Below are positions 8,601 through 26,508 of a stretch of 64,000 bases of DNA, piece after piece (position 1 is the first letter of the stretch; every line of letters begins with the position of its first letter). Below the pieces are notes generated by a model, which saw only the letters and a program-made list of their open reading frames with translations, had not been told where the DNA came from and made no database searches. Source of the stretch: a virus; the IMG/VR virus record IMGVR_UViG_3300030497_000008, positions 1-64,000 of that record. One strand, 5' to 3'. A program made the position numbers and the translations under genes.

Positions 8601-9014
8601 ATGGATAAAACACAAGTAACAGATAAGGTATTTCAATACATAGATGAGTTCGCTAAGACATTAGGGGTAACGGCTGATAGAGTATTCGAATCAGTAGTAA
8701 AGCAAATGTACGTAGACGCTGCAATCAGTGGGTTAGAGTTTATTGTATTCGGTATCGCATTATTTGTAGTAGTTAGGTTCATGATTAATTATAATAAAAA
8801 GTTTAACGAGAGAAAAGAAAAAGTTATGGAGACTAGCGGTTATTGGTCTGATTCAAATGATGACCAGCGATTCAAGATTAATCTAGCATATACGGTCTCT
8901 ATTATCTTCCTCAGTTTCGTTGTACTATGGAATGCTGAGATGGGTATTAGTAAGGCGGTAAACCCTGAGTACTATGCTACAAAAGAAATCGTCAAACAAA
9001 TCCAAGGTAAGTAA
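8601..9014 (+). CDS. Two-TM membrane protein, phage hypothetical
   Basis: GGAGG RBS; two hydrophobic helices; NPEYYA C-terminal motif. Confidence 0.7.
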   Translation: MDKTQVTDKVFQYIDEFAKTLGVTADRVFESVVKQMYVDAAISGLEFIVFGIALFVVVRFMINYNKKFNERKEKVMETSGYWSDSNDDQRFKINLAYTVSIIFLSFVVLWNAEMGISKAVNPEYYATKEIVKQIQGK

Positions 9015-9018
9015 TGCT

Positions 9019-9087
9019 TAGTAGCTCCTCACAAAACGTGGGGAGTTTTTATTTTACTAGTAGCTCCTTACAAACACTTAGTAGCTC
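9019..9087 (+). repeat. Three TAGTAGCTC motifs (first overlaps a terminator-like hairpin 9025-9055)
   Basis: Copies at 9019, 9058, 9079; two more at 17826, 17856. Confidence 0.8.
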
Positions 9088-9145
9088 GCTGCAAACACCT
9101 TTCGACATATCGTATAATCTAGATTTGAATAGTAGTAATAGTTAT

Positions 9146-9160
9146 AATATTCTGAAAATT
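9146..9160. promoter_or_regulatory. CodY-box-like site upstream of the early cassette region
   Basis: AATATTCTGAAAATT, 1 mismatch to AATTTTCWGAAAATT. Confidence 0.6.
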
Positions 9161-10171
9161 TAAATAATTGCAGCTCCGTCGCTTTCTTTCTATTATATGC
9201 GCGTATAAAGGCTACTTGTTTTTGTCCTTATAATAGAAGAAACTCGATTTTATTAAAAAAGATACGAAAATGTATAAAAAGTTGTTGTTTTACTAAAAGT
9301 ATTATGGTAAGATGAAATCAGTTAAGAAAACAACAAAATAACGAAAGAGGTTGATGTGTATGAAAGCACTAACTATTAAAGAGATTAAAGAAAAGAGTGA
9401 TACGGAATTAATCGCTTCTCTTTACTGGGTTGCTGTTCGTTCTACTAATGAAACAAATAGTTTTCGAGGGTTAACGAAGCGTACGGCACAGGATGAGGAG
9501 CGTATACTTAGAGAAGCAATTGAACGCTTTAATTTAGATGAGCAGGTTTTAATTGATAAAACAGTTTTGATACCAAGATAAAAAAAGTTTTAAAAAGTAC
9601 TTGAAATACCAATTGATACATGATAAGATAATTACAGGTTAAAGAAACACCAAAAAATATAAAACGAAAGAGGTTATTATAATGGAAATCAGAGCAATTA
9701 ATTGGGAAGTAAACTTTAAAAGTGAAATGAGCGAACTTGAGTTATACGGGATTGAAAGTGTAATTGATACTTATTGTAACGATGAAGTGTTTAACTTCAA
9801 TCATGAATCATTAGGGCTTGCTTATACATCTTCCAGCGCATACGCAATGTACAACGTTTGTAACGGAGAATTCACTTATTATGATTGGAACACTGAAAAG
9901 GATTTAATTGTTAGTCACTTCGCGGTAACAACTGGAGGATATCTTGTTATGGTATGTCATGATGAATTTGAAAGAGAATTTATGTTCGAACTCGTGTGAG
10001 CGAGTATAAATAGCCTTTAGGCTCACAGCGTTAGAGAGGGTTTCTCCTCTCTAGGTAGGAAAATAAAAAATTCCTAAATAATTTTAAAAAAGTACTTGTA
10101 ATACTAATTAATACATGATAAGATGATTACAGGTTAAGAAAACAAAACAAATTAAGAGGAGATGTTTTAAA

Positions 10172-15700: not shown

Positions 15701-18522
15701 TAATATGAAAACGAGAATTGATGTAAACGAAAGAACGTGTGTACATGTAGAGGGTGATTCCCTTAAAATCAATCAACTAAACCCACTCGCGAAAGATGGA
15801 TTTGATTATAAGGCGATTTATCTAGATAAGCAAGAGTTCGAACACATAGCGGAGGAGCTCAACGCCTTTGACGTACCAGAGGAGCATATTATATATGGTA
15901 GTCAATTGAAAGATTTATCTAACGAGGAGTTAATTAAGTATCATGAGCGATTAGAACACTGGATAACAAAAGGATGGAAACATGAAGGCTGCTACATCTT
16001 GCAAGATTATGTGAAGTATGAAATGTTAGACAGAATGAGAGGAGCTAACAATAATGGCTAAAATAGAAGAAATCGAAAAAGGACGTTACATGGTTGTACT
16101 ATCACAAGCAGAACTTAATACTATCTCACTATTACTGGGAGCATACGAAGGAGACGACTATATCAGAAAAATCGGTGCAGAATTTGAAGACTACCCACAT
16201 GAACCAGATAACGCAAATAACAACTACGTGACAGGCATTGCGGGAGATGACCTATTTAATGCATTCAAGAATCATAGAACTATCTTATGAGGCTGTGTGA
16301 CGTTCCTAGACAATGGCAATGTATTTGTACTCATAAAATACTACAGGAGCGTCACAGGCTCAACAGACACGTTAAAACAAATAAAAGGAGATGTGTACAA
16401 TGAGCAACGAAAACACAAAATCAATTGAAAATGTTATAGCGACACTAGAGGACAATTTATCAACAGTTGTAAGTACTAAGATATTAATTGAGTCTAGAAT
16501 GGATTTAGCAAACGAAAGAAAAGACTACTATAGACGAGAGAAAGAAACAGAACTAGAGAATGCCATCAACCGTGAAGTAAAGGCGCTATACTCTCACCTA
16601 TTAACATTAGACTTACAAACCAAACAACTACAGTCAGTTATTAAACAATTGAAAGGAGTTGCATTATCATGACATTCTTATCAAGTAAAGAAATATATAA
16701 AAGAAACTGCGAGCTTATAGCGGAGGAGTTCACAAAAGATAATGATTACATTGTAGAGGAAATGTACACAGATACAATAGGCACATACCAGTATAAAGTA
16801 AAGTTAAAACATATTGATACAGCTATACTCGTTAGTTACAATAATGAAACACGTAAATATGAGGGATATGTACAATGTAATCACCCAGACTTTCACCAAA
16901 CGTATAATATAGAATCAGAAATAACAATGGAAATATATAAGTTCATTCAAAGTAAAGTAGAAATGATAACAAGAATACTCATATATTGTAAAGACTGGTA
17001 GCCAACACATAGAATATAATAAAGGAGATGTGTATAATGATAATAGCAAAAGTAATGGATATAAGAGAAGGTATTTCAGAGAAGAAGACATTTAAGAATG
17101 GAATAGAACTAAATGAATATCTTAATAATAATCCCTTTGTAATAGTAAGACATAAAGAGTATATACCAGAGGAGGCGGAGAAATGATAAGAGAACCATAT
17201 ATAAGCCCGTTCACACTATATACAATAAATGAACTACATATAACAGCACGACAACGAGCGTATAACGATTATCTAGATATGGTAAGAGGTTATTATGAGC
17301 CGCATGAAATACTTGGTTATGTAGAGTTCAAAAAGAAAGCTATAAGAGAGTCACAGTATTATTATAAAGACGGAACATTCTTTGATTTGTAGAAAGGAGC
17401 TGTATATAATGGAAGTATATATAAATGAAATAGTGATTGTAACGTATGAGTCATATAATAGTGAGTGGACTATAGAAGGGAAGGTTAAACGAGTTACACA
17501 ACATCATATGGTTGTGACAGTAGAGAAATATAATAAAGTTCGTGATAGATATATACCGATAGAGCACATAACCAACGTTGATATTATAACACCTTATAAT
17601 AGTATATAATACATAGCCTGAGAGCTCAATGAAATTAGTCAGAGCCTCAGGTGTTTCCTTTTGTAATAAACAACAAAACTCGTCGAGCCCAACAAAAGGA
17701 GTTAGAGCCTCAGGTTTTATTTTTCAAGTGTTGCTCTAGCTAGGTATAACAAGTTGCATCTATAATCGATTCTATTGATATACTTGTCTATTATTCTGAT
17801 AGTCGAAATACTCTGACAATTTACTTAGTAGCTCACCACAAAACATACGAAAGCCTAGTAGCTCCTTGCATACTAGACTCATATATAATCCCTCTATTAA
17901 AATGTTAAAATTCCTCCGCTGCTGCCTCTATCATACTTTCATAGAATTGTCAAGTTAAATACGCACGACAAATTACAACATTAAATTGTGTGAATATTAT
18001 ATACAATTCGTACAAGCTCGACAGCATTTTTGTTTCTGACATTAGAATACTATAGACGACAGTAAATTACAACATTGTCCCATTTAAAAGTGTATTCATA
18101 ATATTCTGACAATTTGAATAGCGTGAATAGTCTGACAATTAGAGTGATTATAATTAGTTAAATATTCTGACAATTTAAAATAGTTGTCTATATTATCAGA
18201 TAATTAAGAATATTCTGTTATATATAATAGTGTGAATAGTGAGAGTATTCTGACAATTATGATGAACAGGAGCAGAGGGAGTTGTCTTAGTATTCGTAAT
18301 AGTCTGACAATTTAAATGTTATGAATGTTTAGAATAGTCTGACAATTAATATACACAATCTTCATACTATTAAGAATATTCTGATAATTCTGATAATTCA
18401 AACAATTAGCATTAGATTGAATATTCTGACAATTGTTTGATACGAGCTGCTCCAGAGTTATTATAATATTCTGACTATTTAGACGATTCAAATTATCAGA
18501 CAATTCAGAATACATTATTAAC

Positions 18523-18551
18523 TTGACAATCGAGAGCGGGTGTGTTATATA
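18523..18551 (+). promoter_or_regulatory. Sigma-A-like promoter inside the repeat array
   Basis: TTGACA-17 bp-TATATA with extended TG. Confidence 0.6.
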
Positions 18552-18561
18552 TGGGGAGCTG

Positions 18562-18642
18562 TTAGAATAGTTAGAATAGTTAGAATATTTAGAATAGTTA
18601 GAATATTTAGAATATTTAGAATTATCAGACTATTTAGAATAT
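18562..18642 (+). repeat. Nine tandem 9-bp units, consensus TTAGAATA(G/T)
   Basis: ttagaatag x3, ttagaatat x4, ttagaatta, tcagactat, in register. Confidence 0.95.
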
Positions 18643-18917
18643 TCATATTATCAGACAATTATATATGAAACTGTTAGTCTGGGAAGCCTTGATATGACTG
18701 GTCTGAGAGGCTATTTCCTCTGTATGGGCTTCTAGAAGGCTATCTAATACAAATACTAGGGCTATAGGTTAAAACGCCTCTACGGGCTTCTGAGAGCCTT
18801 TAAAATAGATTTGACAAATAATAGATTGTGTGGTATGGGAAGTAATTATAATATTCTGACTAACTGAATATTCTGACAATTCAACTTCTACTATATATGC
18901 ATGAGCAGGTGCGCGCG

Positions 18918-18946
18918 TATATACCACACTAGAGCAGCTATGTCAA
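18918..18946 (-). promoter_or_regulatory. Sigma-A-like promoter pointing back into the array
   Basis: Minus strand TTGACA-17 bp-TATATA with extended TG. Confidence 0.6.
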
Positions 18947-19156
18947 GTATTAAATGTATTATAAATATTCTGAAAATTTAGAATAAACTTTCTTTTACTT
19001 TTTGTCATAAAAGGGTTGTCAGCAGCGTATAATAATAGTAAGATGAAAGCAGTTAAGGAAGCGACAAACTTCCCCAAAAATAATTAAAAAAAGTACTTGA
19101 AATACTCATTAATAAATGGTAAGATGAACTTAACAAATCAAAGGGAGCTGTTGGAA

Positions 19157-19645
19157 ATGACAAATACTTACAATTTAAATCAAGAGGTACAAGTGGAAAT
19201 GGTAAGCGGATTCGAATTAGAAGGGAAGATTGTAGACTTCACAAGCGCTGGGGATATCTGGGTAGAACGTCACTCTGATAAAGATTGGTTGCTTGTAAGT
19301 CCAGAGCTTGACAAAGTGACTATCATTGAGAAAGAGGAGGAAGTGCCAGCACCTCACAGCATCCGCACTCTTAAGGAGCTTAAAGCCCTTATCAAGGAGG
19401 AGCTAACTCAATACTGGTATGAGGAGATTGAGAGCGTTAAGGTAGCTGTATATAATAGCGATGAGGACGGAGCAGAGGTATACGACTGTGAGGTTCAAAT
19501 TGTACTTGACAGCGGCGATACTCTATATCCTACATTTGGTACTTATTACAATGAGAAAGAAGCCCTTAAAGCTGCTCGCGATATGCGTACTAAATTAAAG
19601 CGTACATATGATATTACTGAACAAGTATTCATGTACACTTGCTAG
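19157..19645 (+). CDS. Early acidic hypothetical protein
   Basis: ATG after AAGGGAG behind promoters at 19016 and 19097. Confidence 0.75.
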   Translation: MTNTYNLNQEVQVEMVSGFELEGKIVDFTSAGDIWVERHSDKDWLLVSPELDKVTIIEKEEEVPAPHSIRTLKELKALIKEELTQYWYEEIESVKVAVYNSDEDGAEVYDCEVQIVLDSGDTLYPTFGTYYNEKEALKAARDMRTKLKRTYDITEQVFMYTC

Positions 19646-19680
19646 AATATTCTGACAATTTAAAACTAATATAAAGGGAG

Positions 19681-20040
19681 ATGTTTATTATGTTAACTGT
19701 TAAAATGGAGCTTGCTATTATTGAATTGAAAGGGATTGCTAATCATGCCCACTTCTTAGCCGACCAGTGGGAGCAGGGCATTGCATATAATACTGATATT
19801 GTCAATGATATTAATGATAGACTAATCAAGGCTAGTGAGCATATAGAAGGCGCGTTCAATACCACTCGTAATGGCATCATAGCTATTGAAATGCAGTTCA
19901 TTGAGAGCCGTATTAAGCAGGTCTATAATGGTATCTATATAGGCGATAGAGTCACTAGCACTGGACTATCATACCTAGCAGAGGCAGCCTATCAGACATG
20001 CAAGACTATCACTACATTTGCTATGGAGGTGAGCGCATGA
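19681..20040 (+). CDS. Hypothetical helical protein
   Basis: AAAGGGAG RBS; CodY-like box at 19646-19660 in the preceding gap. Confidence 0.7.
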   Translation: MFIMLTVKMELAIIELKGIANHAHFLADQWEQGIAYNTDIVNDINDRLIKASEHIEGAFNTTRNGIIAIEMQFIESRIKQVYNGIYIGDRVTSTGLSYLAEAAYQTCKTITTFAMEVSA

Positions 20041-21322
20041 GCCTATACTATACTAGTGATACTTATGTCATTGATATGCCCGTAAAGACTCATAAAGGCT
20101 GGACATTTAACGTCCATACATTCGAGGGTATACTCGTTCGGGAATGCACGTATTGCACTAAGTCATCTGCTATGAAGGCTCGCACACGTGAACGTCGAAC
20201 GCGCATGAGTGAAGGAGCTAAAGTTATCTATATCTAGAATCATAAATGTATTAGGTTGTCAATGATTATTTTGTCAACCTTTTTATTTCAATTTATTTTA
20301 CCATTTCATTTGACATATAACCCCACCCGTGCTTTACGACCATGTGTTCGGTTACCTCCCCTCTCTACCCCGACTACCTCAGGTAAAAATCCCAGAAAAA
20401 TTTTGAAAAGTCGCTATATCTATCTTGCACAAGAATTCTAATAGCAGCCCCATAATAGCAGCCCCTTATATAACTCCTAAACCCTACTTATTCATAATGG
20501 CATCTAGTATAAGGATAATGCAGCCCGCTACTCCTAAGTTGAATAATATATAGCACGTAGCAGCCCTAAAGTATGCTCTATCTGTCATCTGGTCATATAC
20601 GTACCTTGTCTTTAACTTCTCCATATATAAACTGGTTAACCACCCAACCGTTAAAAGTCCTACTATTCCTATAATATGTAATAACATTCATGATACCTCC
20701 TTAAAATTTCCTAAAAATTTTTCGACTTGGTTTAAAGGTCACTTCCATATTTTACCAATTTAATAGTTATAGAAAGAGAGGTTGTTAGCCTCTCTGTGTT
20801 ATTGTTTATCTGACAAGGTCTGCTATCATTGATGATAGAATGTCTACTGCTACGGTAACTCCTGTTATAAGGGCTAACATACCGTATATGACTAACTTCT
20901 TAACGTCTTCTTTCTTTATCTCTTCGAATGCCATTTTAATGAAACTATAAGAAGAGAATAAGAATATGGTGATAAATATAGTTCGTAATATCATTTTATG
21001 TACCTCCTAGAATAATATAAGTATGACTGTGGATATGCAGATAGAGGAGACGATACCTGCGAAGAGGTTTAGGTCTCTCTCGTCATCTCCTGTAAATGAG
21101 TCGATAATGTATGCGATAATATCCCATAAGAAGAGGCATATTATCATTATGTATTTGATATCGGTACTCACCTACTGTTCCTCCGCTTCATCTAGTAATA
21201 TGTCTAATGCCTTTTTCTTAAAGTCCTCTATAGGAATATTTTTCATGAAGAAGTGTCCTCCATAGTCTCCTTTAATAACGACTGTCTTTTTATCTTCTGA
21301 TAGGAACATCATAACTGACATA

Positions 21323-22060
21323 TTATTGTCCCTCCTTGAGTTTATTCACCTTCTTATATAGATAGGACGTATGAGCTTCTGATACATCAGGGAACGTTAC
21401 TGTGTAGTATAAGGAGTTATCAGCTTTTATTTCCTTATGTGTATTTATATCAAAGATTGCTGTTCGTTCTTCAATTACACCTTTATCTCCTATAGGAGCT
21501 GCTGAGTATGCTTCTTCAATGATACCTAAAATTTTATATGTCTCTGTTTTCTCTCCATATGTATCTCTATCGGGATAGTACACTTTTGCTACACGTGTAT
21601 CTCCTACGATTGGGAAGTTTTGATATCGGTCTCTTAATGCTGATAAGTATTCATGTTTTACCAATACTGTATCGGGGTGTCCATCCACCATTAAGTCACG
21701 TGAGTATACCGCATCTGACATATAAGATATAAGTCTCATTGTAGCCATTGATACTGTTATGTATCTGTTCTCAATACCTATTCTTGGTTCATGTTTAGCT
21801 TGGAATGTATGCTCATCTTCGTCTACATGGAACACTTCAAACTCTAGGTAATGATGAAATGATGTAGGTTTGTGATATAACGGTAAGTACACTTTATCCC
21901 CGTACTCTACTGGAGAGATAACTACCTCATGTACATAGTTTACTGTCTTAACTCCTACGCACTTCTGTAGTTCTACCTTATCCTTAGGCTTGTCCCCTTC
22001 TGTTACAGGTTCTTCCTTCTGGTTTGTTAGTAATTCTTTTATCTTTTGAATGACACTCAT
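21323..22060 (-). CDS. Hypothetical protein, paralog of 22260..22892
   Basis: Shared YK(I/V)LG(I/V)I..AYSAA...TAI.D..TH.EI...FP domain. Confidence 0.75.
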   Translation of the reverse strand: MSVIQKIKELLTNQKEEPVTEGDKPKDKVELQKCVGVKTVNYVHEVVISPVEYGDKVYLPLYHKPTSFHHYLEFEVFHVDEDEHTFQAKHEPRIGIENRYITVSMATMRLISYMSDAVYSRDLMVDGHPDTVLVKHEYLSALRDRYQNFPIVGDTRVAKVYYPDRDTYGEKTETYKILGIIEEAYSAAPIGDKGVIEERTAIFDINTHKEIKADNSLYYTVTFPDVSEAHTSYLYKKVNKLKEGQ

Positions 22061-25320: not shown

Positions 25321-26508
25321 TTATTTAGCTTTGAAATTGTATAAAGGTTTGATGATATCTTTGATGTCGATTGTGTCTTTTGTGTTCTCGATAATCTCAT
25401 CCATAGGTTTGTACACCATAGGCGCTTCATCTAATGTGCTCTCAACAACAGAAGTTGTCCAAACACCAGCCATTGTATTTGTGAATTCTTCGATGTCTAA
25501 TGAATCCTTAGCCTTTCTACGACTCATAATACGTCCTGCTCCATGAGGTGCAGAGAAGTTCCAATCAGGATTACCTTTACCAAACGCAATGATAGAACCA
25601 TCTCGCATGTTGATAGGTATAATTACTCGTTCTCCTTGTTGAGCTGAGATAGCGCCCTTACGCATAATCATGTTATCCATATCGATATAGTTGTGGATAG
25701 TATCGAATGAATCAGTGATTTTCCACCCCATCTTAGCAACGATTACATCAATCATCGCTTGGCGGTTTAACGCAGCGTAGTATTGCGCGATTTTCATATC
25801 ATGCATGTAGTCTTTAAATCCTTGCCCTTCTAAGTAAGCGAACTCTTTACGGATTTTAGGTTGTTTAACTCCTCGCAAAGCATCATGAATCTCATGTTGG
25901 CGTCCCTCTTTTGTTAATCGTTCGATAATTTCGTCCTTAACAGATTTAACATTCATTAGCTGCTCATATGCAAGGTTCTGGTAGTGCTCTGCAATTTGTT
26001 TACCTAAGTGACGAGAGCCGCTATGAATAACAAGGTATACGTTACCTGCTTCGTCTTCGTTAACCTCAATAAAGTGGTTACCTCCACCTAATGTACCAAT
26101 ACTGTTCTGTGCTCGTTGCAGGTTGAATGGAGCTCGTACAGATTTGAAGTCTACCATATTAGCGAAGCTATGCGCCGTACCACGAATCGAGAAACCGTTA
26201 GGTACATGGTTATAGATTACTTCATCTAATTGGTCAAACTTGATTTCTTCTTTCTTTTTATCGATGATAGCAACATGCATCCCGCATCCGATATCAACCC
26301 CTACTAGATTTGAAACAATTTTATCTTGGATTGTCATAGTTGTGCCAATTGTACATCCTGCACCTGCATGCGTGTCAGGCATGATACGAATCTTATTACC
26401 TTTTACAAACTCTTGGTTACAGAGTTCAATAATCTGCCCTGTTGCAGTCTCCTCGATATTATTAGTGAATACCTTCGCCTCATTATATTTACCTTTTAGT
26501 GTTAACAT
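25321..26508 (-). CDS. rtcB: RtcB-family 3'-phosphate/5'-OH RNA ligase
   Basis: MPDTHAG, VGVDIGCG, GTLGGGNHFIE, HSGSR, HNYI, RKGA, SAPHGAGR, DEAPMVYK motifs. Confidence 0.95.
   Translation of the reverse strand: MLTLKGKYNEAKVFTNNIEETATGQIIELCNQEFVKGNKIRIMPDTHAGAGCTIGTTMTIQDKIVSNLVGVDIGCGMHVAIIDKKKEEIKFDQLDEVIYNHVPNGFSIRGTAHSFANMVDFKSVRAPFNLQRAQNSIGTLGGGNHFIEVNEDEAGNVYLVIHSGSRHLGKQIAEHYQNLAYEQLMNVKSVKDEIIERLTKEGRQHEIHDALRGVKQPKIRKEFAYLEGQGFKDYMHDMKIAQYYAALNRQAMIDVIVAKMGWKITDSFDTIHNYIDMDNMIMRKGAISAQQGERVIIPINMRDGSIIAFGKGNPDWNFSAPHGAGRIMSRRKAKDSLDIEEFTNTMAGVWTTSVVESTLDEAPMVYKPMDEIIENTKDTIDIKDIIKPLYNFKAK

Follow-up and report, generated by a model that had tools for sequence, protein, structure and literature searches.

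What reads the 15-bp sites that crowd a non-coding stretch of this phage genome, and to what effect? We analysed a window of 64,000 nucleotides (positions 1 to 64,000 of IMG/VR record IMGVR_UViG_3300030497_000008), in which a preliminary description had proposed positions 17790-18980 as a landing strip of host CodY. CodY is a repressor of Firmicutes which senses branched-chain amino acids as well as GTP and is active in the well-fed host.

The phage is a Bequatrovirus-like myophage of the Bacillus cereus group, and the array occupies the non-coding left half of a predicted direct terminal repeat (DTR) of about 2.67 kb (17712-20380). The repeat is present as a single collapsed copy in the permuted assembly, and the physical genome ends are predicted at 17712 and about 20380. 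The predicted left cut site is GAGCCTC/AGG (17705-17714, + strand, slash marking the cut), with 17712 as the first virion base; the motif recurs at 17642. The exact DTR of SageFayge (2812 bp) begins with AGCCTC/AGGTTTTT, and over its first 53 bases the sequence from 17712 onwards shares about 80% identity with the left ends recorded for five Bequatrovirus genomes. In the sequencing run of a relative (X3), a contig begins at 17712 right behind the Illumina adapter letters GCTCTTCCGATCT, which argues for a DNA end at this base. The runs were available as contigs, which give no depth readout of the terminal repeat, and the adapter junction alone was informative. The right boundary CTACCTC/AGGTAAAA (20377-20383) agrees with CTACCT/GAGGTTAAAA of SageFayge. 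For comparison with the left cut site, the termini of Thurquoise are cut within an inverted GCCCCAGGCT (PMC10043171). The gene order is that of relatives with determined ends, namely a non-coding leader, two to three plus-strand genes and then minus-strand genes. Between the predicted left end and the start of the array lie 95 bp, and the best-conserved stretch near this end is the first 53 bp, not the array.

Sites were scored by the number of mismatches to the CodY consensus AATTTTCWGAAAATT, and not with a weight matrix from Bacillus CodY experiments. All 17 15-mers reported earlier were recovered at their positions with no more than 3 mismatches, and 17984 was found as an additional site. 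The window contains 33 such sites compared with 8.5 ± 2.8 in shuffles, so that the motif proved clearly commoner than in shuffled DNA, a check which the preliminary description had proposed. In the leader (17712-19100, 1.39 kb), 18 sites with ≤3 mismatches and 7 sites with ≤2 mismatches were found, where first-order Markov shuffles gave 0.26 and 0.03, respectively; the density is about 16-22 sites per 1.2 kb of non-coding DNA. Two sites, 18964 and 9146, are a single mismatch away from the consensus. The likeness to the CodY consensus noticed before was borne out above chance, since the array sites and the CodY box have the dyad skeleton AAT-NN-TC-N-GA-NN-ATT in common. The distribution of the skeleton is strongly skewed, with half of all matches of the whole genome (22/43) inside the leader, which is 0.86% of the genome length. 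The leader also holds 17 of the 23 24-mers of the whole genome with ≤5 mismatches from a double CodY box.

The actual consensus of the array is AATAKTCTGACAATT. Its bases A4, T8 and C11 differ from the CodY consensus and are nevertheless conserved in 46/48, 46/48 and 40/48 sites of five phages, roughly to the same degree as the positions that follow that consensus; with an ascertainment blind to these three bases, A4 was still present in 16/22 and C11 in 14/22. This near fixation departs from the loose, largely shape-based preference of CodY. Since a binder that mostly reads DNA shape should not fix these three bases, the sites may belong to another protein, whose optimum they would represent. 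The sequence ATTCTGACAATT occurs 15 times at ≤1 mismatch (expected 0.92), and all 15 matches are on the + strand, in agreement with the earlier remark that the repeats are co-oriented; such co-orientation is not required by a symmetric dimer and speaks against CodY. The array was also rightly described as free of credible ORFs: only ORFs of 42-67 aa are present, and SageFayge and Chotacabras have no CDS before the first DTR gene, while one small hypothetical ORF is annotated in each of the leaders of Troll, AvesoBmore and Spock.

From the left end, the leader contains an outlying 15-mer found by motif scan, AATACTCTGACAATT (17807-17821, + strand), and, occurring twice, the second motif YTAGTAGCTC(N5)CAAA (17826-17864, + strand), which SageFayge has three times in the same relative place. 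The core array with consensus AATAKTCTGACAATT (18100-18479, + strand) comprises co-oriented sites at 18100, 18126, 18161, 18244, 18298, 18333, 18375/18384, 18420 and 18465. It is followed by the dyad-type site AATTATCAGACAATT (18491-18505), which may be compared with braB motif 2, TATTATCTGACAATT (PMC4608796), and by two dyad-type sites from the motif scan, AATTATCAGACTATT and TATTATCAGACAATT (18620-18660). Outside the leader, a perfect site AATATTCTGACAATT (19646-19660, + strand) begins one base past the stop of gene 1; it is kept there in B5S, Chotacabras and Taffo16, and lies 26-31 bases downstream in AvesoBmore and Troll. A satellite copy of the leader motifs at 9019-9160 (+ strand) consists of three TAGTAGCTC repeats and one AATATTCTGAAAATT overlapping TATAAT.

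The sites are interleaved with tandem promoters, and this arrangement, like the placement in the DTR leader, was missed by the preliminary description, which had otherwise found real sites. Promoter-like P1 (18523-18551, + strand) was read from the sequence as TTGACA, 17 nt and TGt-TATATA, with TTGACA at the same place in SageFayge; because its -10 ends in A, it escaped the consensus promoter scan. A G+C-richer block at 18681-18839 (+ strand) ends in promoter-like P2, with TTGACA (18811-18816), 17 nt and TGg-TATGGG (18834-18839). The block is kept across genera, its counterparts in B5S, SageFayge, Spock and Troll, among others, being 76-88% identical, and TTGACA and TG-TAT of P2 are invariant in the eight phages compared. 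Immediately 3' of P2 lie two sites, AATATTCTGACTAAC and AATATTCTGACAATT (18850-18881, + strand), which B5S shares and of which SageFayge has variants. Then AATATTCTGAAAATT (18964-18978, + strand), the leader site with 1 mismatch, stands 5' of P3, and the identical variant is found at the identical position in Chotacabras, Troll and AvesoBmore. P3 (TTGTCA-17-TAAGAT) and P4 (TTGAAA-17-TG-TAAGAT) are promoter-like sequences 5' of gene 1 (19016-19125, + strand). In 17000-21500, 48 sigma-70-like sites were counted compared with 23 in shuffles. The conserved block yielded no convincing RNA structure at 18660-18880 (-8.2 kcal/mol, little covariation), an Rfam search of 16500-20500 at E ≤ 1 matched nothing, and the GC skew tracked the direction of transcription and marked no origin at the array.

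The sites had further been described as partly in 9-bp phase, and this was upheld only for one tandem and a few doublets. The tandem (18561-18641, + strand) consists of nine 9-bp units (G/T)TTAGAATA and stretches, relative to P1, from about +1 to +80; its Fourier power at period 9 was 5.65 compared with 0.53 ± 0.37 in shuffles. Taken as overlapping 15-mers, its units are 3-4 mismatches away from the CodY box. Doublets with the 9-bp step are 18324/18333, 18366/18375/18384, 18593/18602 and 18620/18629. The core array showed no 9-bp periodicity between 18090 and 18560 (Fourier power 0.59 vs 0.57 ± 0.36 in shuffles), and most canonical sites are isolated, with 5-10 mismatches in the partner positions at ±9 bp. 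In close relatives the copy number of the tandem differs, with 45 bases fewer in the contig of X4, or the tandem is replaced (X2), which argues that it is dispensable.

The same 15-mer array was found in SageFayge (Wphvirus) and in B5S, Chotacabras, Spock, Troll, AvesoBmore and Taffo16 (Bequatrovirus). Across these relatives the spacers between the sites are no longer alignable while the sites are kept, and by this comparison of sequences the array sites are under selection in both genera. The first gene of the terminal repeat, gene 1 (19157-19645, + strand, 162 aa, phrog_2236), is only about 30-86% identical among the array-bearing relatives. Phrog_2236 is present in 84 Bacillus phage records, mostly in two copies (one in B4/B5S, W.Ph. 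and some others) and usually 1-2 kb from the left end. Genes 2 and 3 (19681-20237, + strand) are phrog_2782 and an overlapping 79-aa ORF. No Pfam match above cut-off was obtained for the terminal-repeat genes and their upstream neighbours.

Arrays of the same motif were also found in five IMG/VR contigs (G001-G005) with SPbeta/YonF-type terminases, which carry 20-55 sites per contig. In G004 and G005 the arrays are strictly 9-bp periodic (power 15-21 vs 0.6-0.7, maximum 3) with the unit ATTCAGAAW. The sites of G001 and G002 are placed as operators would be, overlapping the -10/+1 of TTGTCA-17-TGnTAATAT promoters, and such promoter-located sites are spread across 6-12 kb. The variant AATATTCTGACAATT is preferred in these unrelated phages too. 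The genes which these contigs have in common with the phage are ribonucleotide reductase, ThyA/HNH, tail and similar genes, without a small DNA-binding protein; all-against-all BLASTP of ORFs ≥40 aa from the six genomes gave no common binder, and what G001-G003 have in common within their site-rich regions is a 5'-nucleotidase, besides proteins of no known family. A CodY-type HTH (PF08222) is encoded in none of G000-G005. Skewed distribution and occurrence both in Bastillevirinae and in the unrelated contigs match the pattern described for host-regulator site fields of the CtrA type (PMC9437464). No arrays were found in PBC2, vB_BcoS-136, Sundance and Lactococcus AM1 (cultured phages with G005-like terminases) or in Caeruleovirus Thurquoise; since phages such as Thurquoise and PBC2 do without it, the array is not a general need of B. 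cereus-group and related phages. A scan of bacterial genomes with the doublet pattern returned mostly unrelated tandem repeats (cyanobacteria, Bacteroidota, others), and informative matches were limited to a small number of contigs from Firmicutes or of phage-like character (L092, L077) and to two doublets on Streptococcus chromosomes. In a Streptococcus genome, a chromosomal doublet of TTCTGACAATT boxes lies 5' of a hisC/hisZ-like operon, in favour of a CodY reading.

Published CodY boxes resemble the phage sites closely. The exact phage 15-mer AATATTCTGACAATT is the predicted CodY box of CodY-repressed thrC of S. salivarius, and AATATTCTGAAAATT is that of ilvD (PMC5966866, Table 1). In B. 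subtilis, site II of braB (+14 to +43), a strong CodY site defined by experiment, contains tATTaTCTGAcAATT, and TCTGACAATT, the right half of the phage 15-mer, falls within this site (PMC4608796). Overlapping CodY operators follow a 9-bp step, and single boxes bind weakly, at about 700 nM for E. faecalis CodY (PMC10415144). As unrelated phages bear the same arrays, candidate CodY sites probably serve the phage to sense a host signal or to mop it up. The landing strip proposed earlier is favoured by a likeness beyond chance, by published boxes and by the unrelated arrays, and disfavoured by the fixed A4, T8 and C11 and by the mostly isolated sites; we give about even chances to host CodY as the predicted binder of the array, in which case it would probably gate the tandem promoters of the leader. 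Repression of early genes in a well-fed host would also bring no obvious gain for a virulent phage.

If CodY does bind, for which together with its effect the balance is likewise roughly equal, the array would be a dense set of CodY-type operators that fills the DTR's non-coding leader. In a well-fed host, active CodY dimers would occupy the 15-bp dyads and polymerise along the 9-bp tandem and the doublets. Because sites lie at or just 3' of the tandem sigma-A promoters P1 and P2 and between genes 1 and 2, bound CodY could act as operator and roadblock, tying the terminal-repeat genes and the leader transcripts to the nutrient state of the host. Titration of CodY by the array, which may derepress the amino-acid supply of the host, is possible, given the two copies of the repeat per virion genome and genome replication. 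The placement in the DTR leader with tandem promoters speaks more for a gate on early transcription than for a pure sponge, and leaves functions related to the DNA end in play. A broader proposal is that large phages of Firmicutes, virulent and temperate, repeatedly evolved non-coding CodY strips, two per genome here by virtue of the terminal repeat and in some cases made of 9-bp units that keep perfect phase over hundreds of bases, along which CodY would polymerise; replication would drain CodY and switch on host amino-acid uptake and synthesis, and the terminal-repeat genes would report the nutrient state. We consider this generalisation rather unlikely.

Other readings have to be weighed against host CodY. 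A specific protein encoded by the phage, with AATAKTCTGACAATT as its optimum, might serve the genome end (recognition by terminase, processing of concatemers), replication initiation or the shut-off of early transcription, and the CodY likeness would then be a coincidence of AT-rich dyads; we hold this to be a real rival, though the less probable one. The R sites of lambda cosB and the SRL/SRR repeats of T7 beside the cut site offer a comparison, as the array starts 95 bp inside the predicted end; however, sites are also found at many G001/G002 promoters. Co-oriented, sharply defined sites with fixed non-CodY bases would suit such a binder, as would the second motif TAGTAGCTC, which goes with the sites both in the leader and at 9019-9160, and several HTH proteins are annotated in relatives. 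The array co-occurs with gene 1, but the AlphaFold model of gene 1 (pLDDT 86) has an N-terminal Tudor/SH3-like barrel and a C-terminal alpha-beta3-alpha, dsRBD-like domain, with Pelota and Tudor domains as best PDB matches (E about 2e-3) and no DNA-binding fold, and by this model gene 1 was rejected as the array binder. The arrays in phages without any common candidate binder also tell against a phage protein, and the same motif across genera whose proteins are about 40% identical would require an unusually conserved one. Iterons of a replication origin were rejected, since the spacings are irregular (26, 35, 83, 54, 35, 42, 45 and 45 bp; 26-97 bp overall) and the neighbours include no initiator gene or known family.

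The sites might instead be promoter parts or RNA polymerase decoys, with CTGACA mimicking a -35 (5/6 positions of TTGACA) and AATATT a -10, or an expanded satellite DNA without function. The doubled number of sigma-70-like sites around the array, the use of the left half of the site as -10 in G001 and the variable copy number of the tandem are in line with this, but neither flank of the 15-mer has a conserved element at constant spacing, by which the array sites are not promoters, and a motif kept while the spacers diverge speaks against neutral DNA; this reading is improbable. Hardly likely, too, is an anchoring device as in T5-like phages, in which CodY or another host protein would bind the first-entering DNA and pause or organise its entry or protect its end. 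A conserved non-coding repeat field with host-protein site matches in a terminal repeat is indeed known from these phages (bioRxiv 10.1101/866236), and the array would stand at both genome ends. The promoter sites across 6-12 kb of G001 and G002 fit regulation better. The T5 model itself is unproven, and to our knowledge no two-step DNA entry has been described in Herelleviridae.

Clustered sites by which a phage reads a global regulator of its host have precedents with CtrA and, in phi29, with Spo0A. A literature search found no paper connecting CodY with Herelleviridae or with phage site arrays, and we know of no phage DNA sponge for a global regulator as a counterpart of RNA sponges. If CodY binds, the widespread biocontrol phages of B. 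cereus, B. thuringiensis and B. anthracis would couple their earliest genes, and perhaps host metabolism, to the nutrient state, and their efficacy on starved or sporulating cells would be affected. Existing codY mutants and purified CodY allow a direct test of reading by CodY, and the strictly periodic arrays of the unrelated phages are natural substrates for studies of higher-order CodY oligomers.

Among known systems, SPBRE (SPbeta repeated element) is likewise 15 bp long and recurs at the promoters of a large Bacillus phage; it is bound by the SPbeta repressor MrpR, which maintains lysogeny (PMC10516654). MrpR, however, is phage-encoded, and the array motif is not enriched in SPbeta (17 matches with ≤2 mismatches vs 18 in the reversed control), so that an SPBRE/MrpR operator was rejected. 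The left terminal repeat of T5 has conserved untranslated repeats with eight paired DnaA boxes in inverted repeats, proposed to hold the first-entering DNA in two-step injection (bioRxiv 10.1101/866236). Both regions are repeat-rich, non-coding, better kept than the adjoining genes and matched to sites of a host protein, but the phage array consists of about 16 co-oriented dyads instead of paired boxes. CodY operators (box AATTTTCWGAAAATT; 9-bp-offset boxes at hutP, ureA and braB site II) have the same dyad skeleton. With 1-3 mismatches the phage sites equal or surpass functional chromosomal boxes (up to about 5 mismatches), and some lie just 3' of promoters as braB site II does. Chromosomal regions contain a handful of boxes, five at braB (PMC4608796), whereas the phage has about 16-22 sites in 1.2 kb, which are of a fixed variant (A4, T8, C11), co-oriented, mostly non-overlapping and predicted from the sequence. 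The fields of CtrA sites in phages of Alphaproteobacteria, for which CtrA binding and regulation were shown experimentally, underlie 'lytic deferment' (Mascolo et al. 2022, PMC9437464). They also are dense sites for a global regulator of the host in a large intergenic region, skewed in distribution, placed at promoters and found in several unrelated lineages. The regulator, the phylum and the signal (nutrient state vs cell cycle) differ, as does the DTR location, and CodY binding is predicted. In the phi29 family of virulent Bacillus phages, host Spo0A boxes and parS sites are reportedly clustered near the genome ends (work of Meijer and Salas). There, clusters of host-regulator sites near the ends couple phage development to the state of the host, though motif and phage family differ, and the logic would be inverted here, as starvation activates Spo0A whereas CodY is active in fed cells.

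All of the 15-mers listed in the preliminary description were found, each with no more than 3 mismatches to AATTTTCWGAAAATT, and their density far exceeds that of shuffled DNA: the region 17712-19100 holds 18 sites at ≤3 mismatches versus 0.26 in Markov shuffles. The dyad skeleton AAT-NN-TC-N-GA-NN-ATT has 43 genome-wide matches, 22 of which fall within the array stretch (0.86% of the genome). An ORF scan upheld the absence of a credible ORF in this stretch; SageFayge and Chotacabras have no CDS annotated ahead of the first gene of the direct terminal repeat (DTR), and Troll, AvesoBmore and Spock have one small hypothetical ORF each in the leader. The true repeat unit is a sharply bounded 15-mer, AATAKTCTGACAATT, present on the + strand only, and no conserved flanks around it were found in the array. 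The suggested 9-bp phase was only partly confirmed, because it is present in a nine-unit tandem (18561-18641) and a few doublets, but the core array (18090-18560) is without 9-bp periodicity and a usable partner at a 9-bp offset is missing for most canonical sites.

The window is the opening 64 kb of a phage genome of 161,391 bp. Judged by DNA and protein similarity, the phage belongs to the Bastillevirinae (Herelleviridae) as a myophage of the Bacillus cereus group, with Bequatrovirus (Chotacabras, B4/B5S, Spock, Troll) as the nearest genus and Wphvirus (SageFayge, Zuko, Hakuna) as more distant kin. The DTR of SageFayge is an exact 2812-bp direct repeat with the left boundary AGCCTC/AGGTTTTT and the right boundary CTACCT/GAGGTT, and the window counterparts are GAGCCTC/AGGTTTTATTTTTCAAG at 17705-17714 and CTACCTC/AGGTAAAA at 20377-20383. 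The first 53 bases from 17712 share ~80% identity with the starts of five Bequatrovirus records, which open with GGGTTTTGTATTTCAAG or AGCTTTTGTATTT. In the public sequencing run X3, which contains contigs of a relative, one contig begins at 17712 right after the Illumina adapter letters GCTCTTCCGATCT; another, longer contig of 4.3 kb stops at 17706. Such an adapter junction indicates a physical DNA end, and it coincides exactly with the left DTR boundary predicted by SageFayge homology. In Thurquoise (Bastillevirinae), the termini are cut within inverted GCCCCAGGCT (PMC10043171). Based on the matching boundary motifs, the end homology, the X3 junction and the Thurquoise cut, the array is therefore placed in the non-coding left half of a predicted ~2.67-kb terminal repeat (17712-20380), with two copies per virion genome. 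The remainder of the repeat contains two or three small genes without assigned function. Thurquoise is array-free, yet its 8-kb terminal repeat carries a single AATAGTCAGACAATT site, ~70 bp short of the right end (L009 7930-7944, both copies).

From left to right, the leader starts with the cut site, followed by one 15-mer and two copies (in 17826-17864) of a second motif, TAGTAGCTC, with the form YTAGTAGCTC(N5)CAAA. This family has three copies in the intergenic region 9014-9350 (within 9019-9090) and two near the left end of the terminal repeat; it is always accompanied by a 15-mer site in the window, the pairing recurring at intergenic 9019-9160, and SageFayge has three copies close to its left end. 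Nine co-oriented sites (18100-18479) are followed by the promoter-like P1 (TTGACA-17-TGtTATATA, 18523-18551) and directly by the 9-bp tandem and two dyad-type sites. The otherwise AT-rich leader contains a G+C-richer block of ~160 bp (18681-18839) that shows 76-88% identity across Bequatrovirus and Wphvirus and closes with the promoter-like P2, in which TTGACA and TG-TAT are unchanged among eight phages. Zero Rfam matches were obtained for this block, and a search for a conserved RNA fold gave nothing convincing. Two sites lie immediately downstream of P2, followed by the site at 18964, with one mismatch to the CodY consensus, the promoter-like P3 and P4, and gene 1. A perfect site starts one base past the gene 1 stop; B5S, Chotacabras and Taffo16 keep it in this position, and AvesoBmore and Troll have it 26-31 bases downstream. 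Gene 1 (19157-19645, phrog_2236) is present in 84 Bacillus phage records and annotated as an RNA-binding protein in one record. Its confident model (pLDDT 86) shows a Tudor/SH3-like barrel and a dsRBD-like domain of alpha-beta3-alpha form, and the C-terminal YxC is invariant; a DNA-binding match to the model was looked for and none was found.

A corresponding leader with 7-13 sites and a common consensus was present in all seven relatives examined. Since this consensus was kept while the leaders diverged, being alignable only in three short blocks, and gene 1 retains only about 30-86% identity, the sites are under selection. In public runs, close relatives have a 9-bp tandem (18529-18616) that is five units shorter, absent or replaced, and their ATTCTGATA doublet at 18378 is one 9-bp unit short; the copy number of the 9-bp repeats therefore changes quickly in both directions.

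IMG/VR was scanned for two sites in a row, and the matches comprised Bastillevirinae and, beyond them, contigs in which this site family likewise forms dense arrays. Five such phage contigs, G001-G005, have a terminase of SPbeta/YonF type and share with the window phage only genes such as ribonucleotide reductase, ThyA/HNH, RtcB and tail proteins. The RtcB RNA ligase gene of the window (25321-26508, minus strand; Pfam E 3e-65) is 57% identical to that of the otherwise unrelated G005, which suggests exchange or a common need for tRNA repair. The repeated operator of SPbeta was ruled out as the motif, as it differs from the 15-mer. In G001 and G002, the 15-mers overlap -10/+1 of many TTGTCA-17-TGnTAATAT promoters, an operator position; in G001 at 1-12.2 kb (L042) and G002 at 18-24.5 kb (L044-L045), the promoter-overlapping 15-mer is often followed by a TGCCG...CGGCA hairpin, with about one unit per small gene. 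The site form of G003 is a perfect dyad, AATTGTCTGACAATT. The uncultured phages G004 and G005 (92 kb and 129 kb) have non-coding arrays of ~3 kb (34.9-37.9 kb) and ~0.8 kb (101.1-101.9 kb), respectively (L037-L057), which are strictly 9-bp periodic (power 15-21 versus about 0.7 in shuffles) and consist of 30-40 phased ATTCAGAAW units in blocks of both orientations. Overlapping CodY operators have this unit and this step, and each of the two arrays reads as a long series of CodY-type boxes that overlap.

Two CodY dimers cover 24 bp at a 9-bp offset, longer oligomers are predicted, and isolated single boxes are bound weakly (PMC10415144). In S. salivarius, the predicted box of the CodY-repressed thrC is the exact phage 15-mer AATATTCTGACAATT, that of ilvD is AATATTCTGAAAATT, and AATTGTC half-sites are tabulated at the most strongly derepressed genes (PMC5966866). 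The strong CodY site II of B. subtilis braB (+14 to +43) includes tATTaTCTGAcAATT (PMC4608796). The Streptococcus tangpeifui chromosome (L078 3976-4019) has a pair of TTCTGACAATT boxes, 29 bp apart, at ~200 bp upstream of a divergent hisC/hisZ-like operon with a class I/II aminotransferase gene first and a HisZ-like gene; the pair is likely a chromosomal CodY operator of a histidine operon. Since the thrC/ilvD, braB and Streptococcus boxes contain such variants, C11 and G5 of the 15-mer are compatible with genuine CodY boxes.

A phage-encoded protein that binds the sites, with a role at the genome end or in early transcription, was favoured at first, as the non-CodY bases A4, T8 and C11 are conserved as strongly as the CodY bases. 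We moved away from this reading because the IMG/VR scan gave the same sites in unrelated phages, and the gene comparison of the six genomes found no small DNA-binding protein common to the window phage and G001-G005; a phage binder is now considered less likely than CodY, but a serious rival. A host factor is the simplest account of the 15-mer and 9-bp step shared by unrelated phages, and CodY is the sole known factor having such a site and geometry. No CodY-type HTH is encoded in any of the six genomes. Against CodY, the variant consensus is unusually fixed, the sites are co-oriented and most are isolated, single boxes being weak CodY binders; furthermore, arrays are missing from other B. cereus-group or related phages among those checked, such as Thurquoise and PBC2. 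Taken together, we give host CodY about an even chance of being the binder of the array. A T5-like entry or anchoring role and promoter decoys or functionless repeats share the small remainder.

If CodY binds, the site positions favour gating of terminal-repeat transcription by the host nutrient state as the putative function, because sites are found immediately downstream of P1 and P2, in the interval separating genes 1 and 2, and at operator positions in G001 and G002. The two arrays of each replicating genome might conceivably titrate CodY as well.

In the literature searches, no paper tied CodY to Herelleviridae or to site arrays on phage DNA. The nearest precedent in function comes from the CtrA-site fields in phages of Alphaproteobacteria, where CtrA binding was shown experimentally (PMC9437464). 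Like the present array, these fields occupy a large intergenic region with skewed site density and arose independently in several lineages (PMC9437464), whereas the present array is found in Firmicutes phages, lies in the terminal repeat, and its CodY binding is predicted from sequence. The array would be the CodY counterpart of the CtrA fields, in Firmicutes phages and within the terminal repeat.
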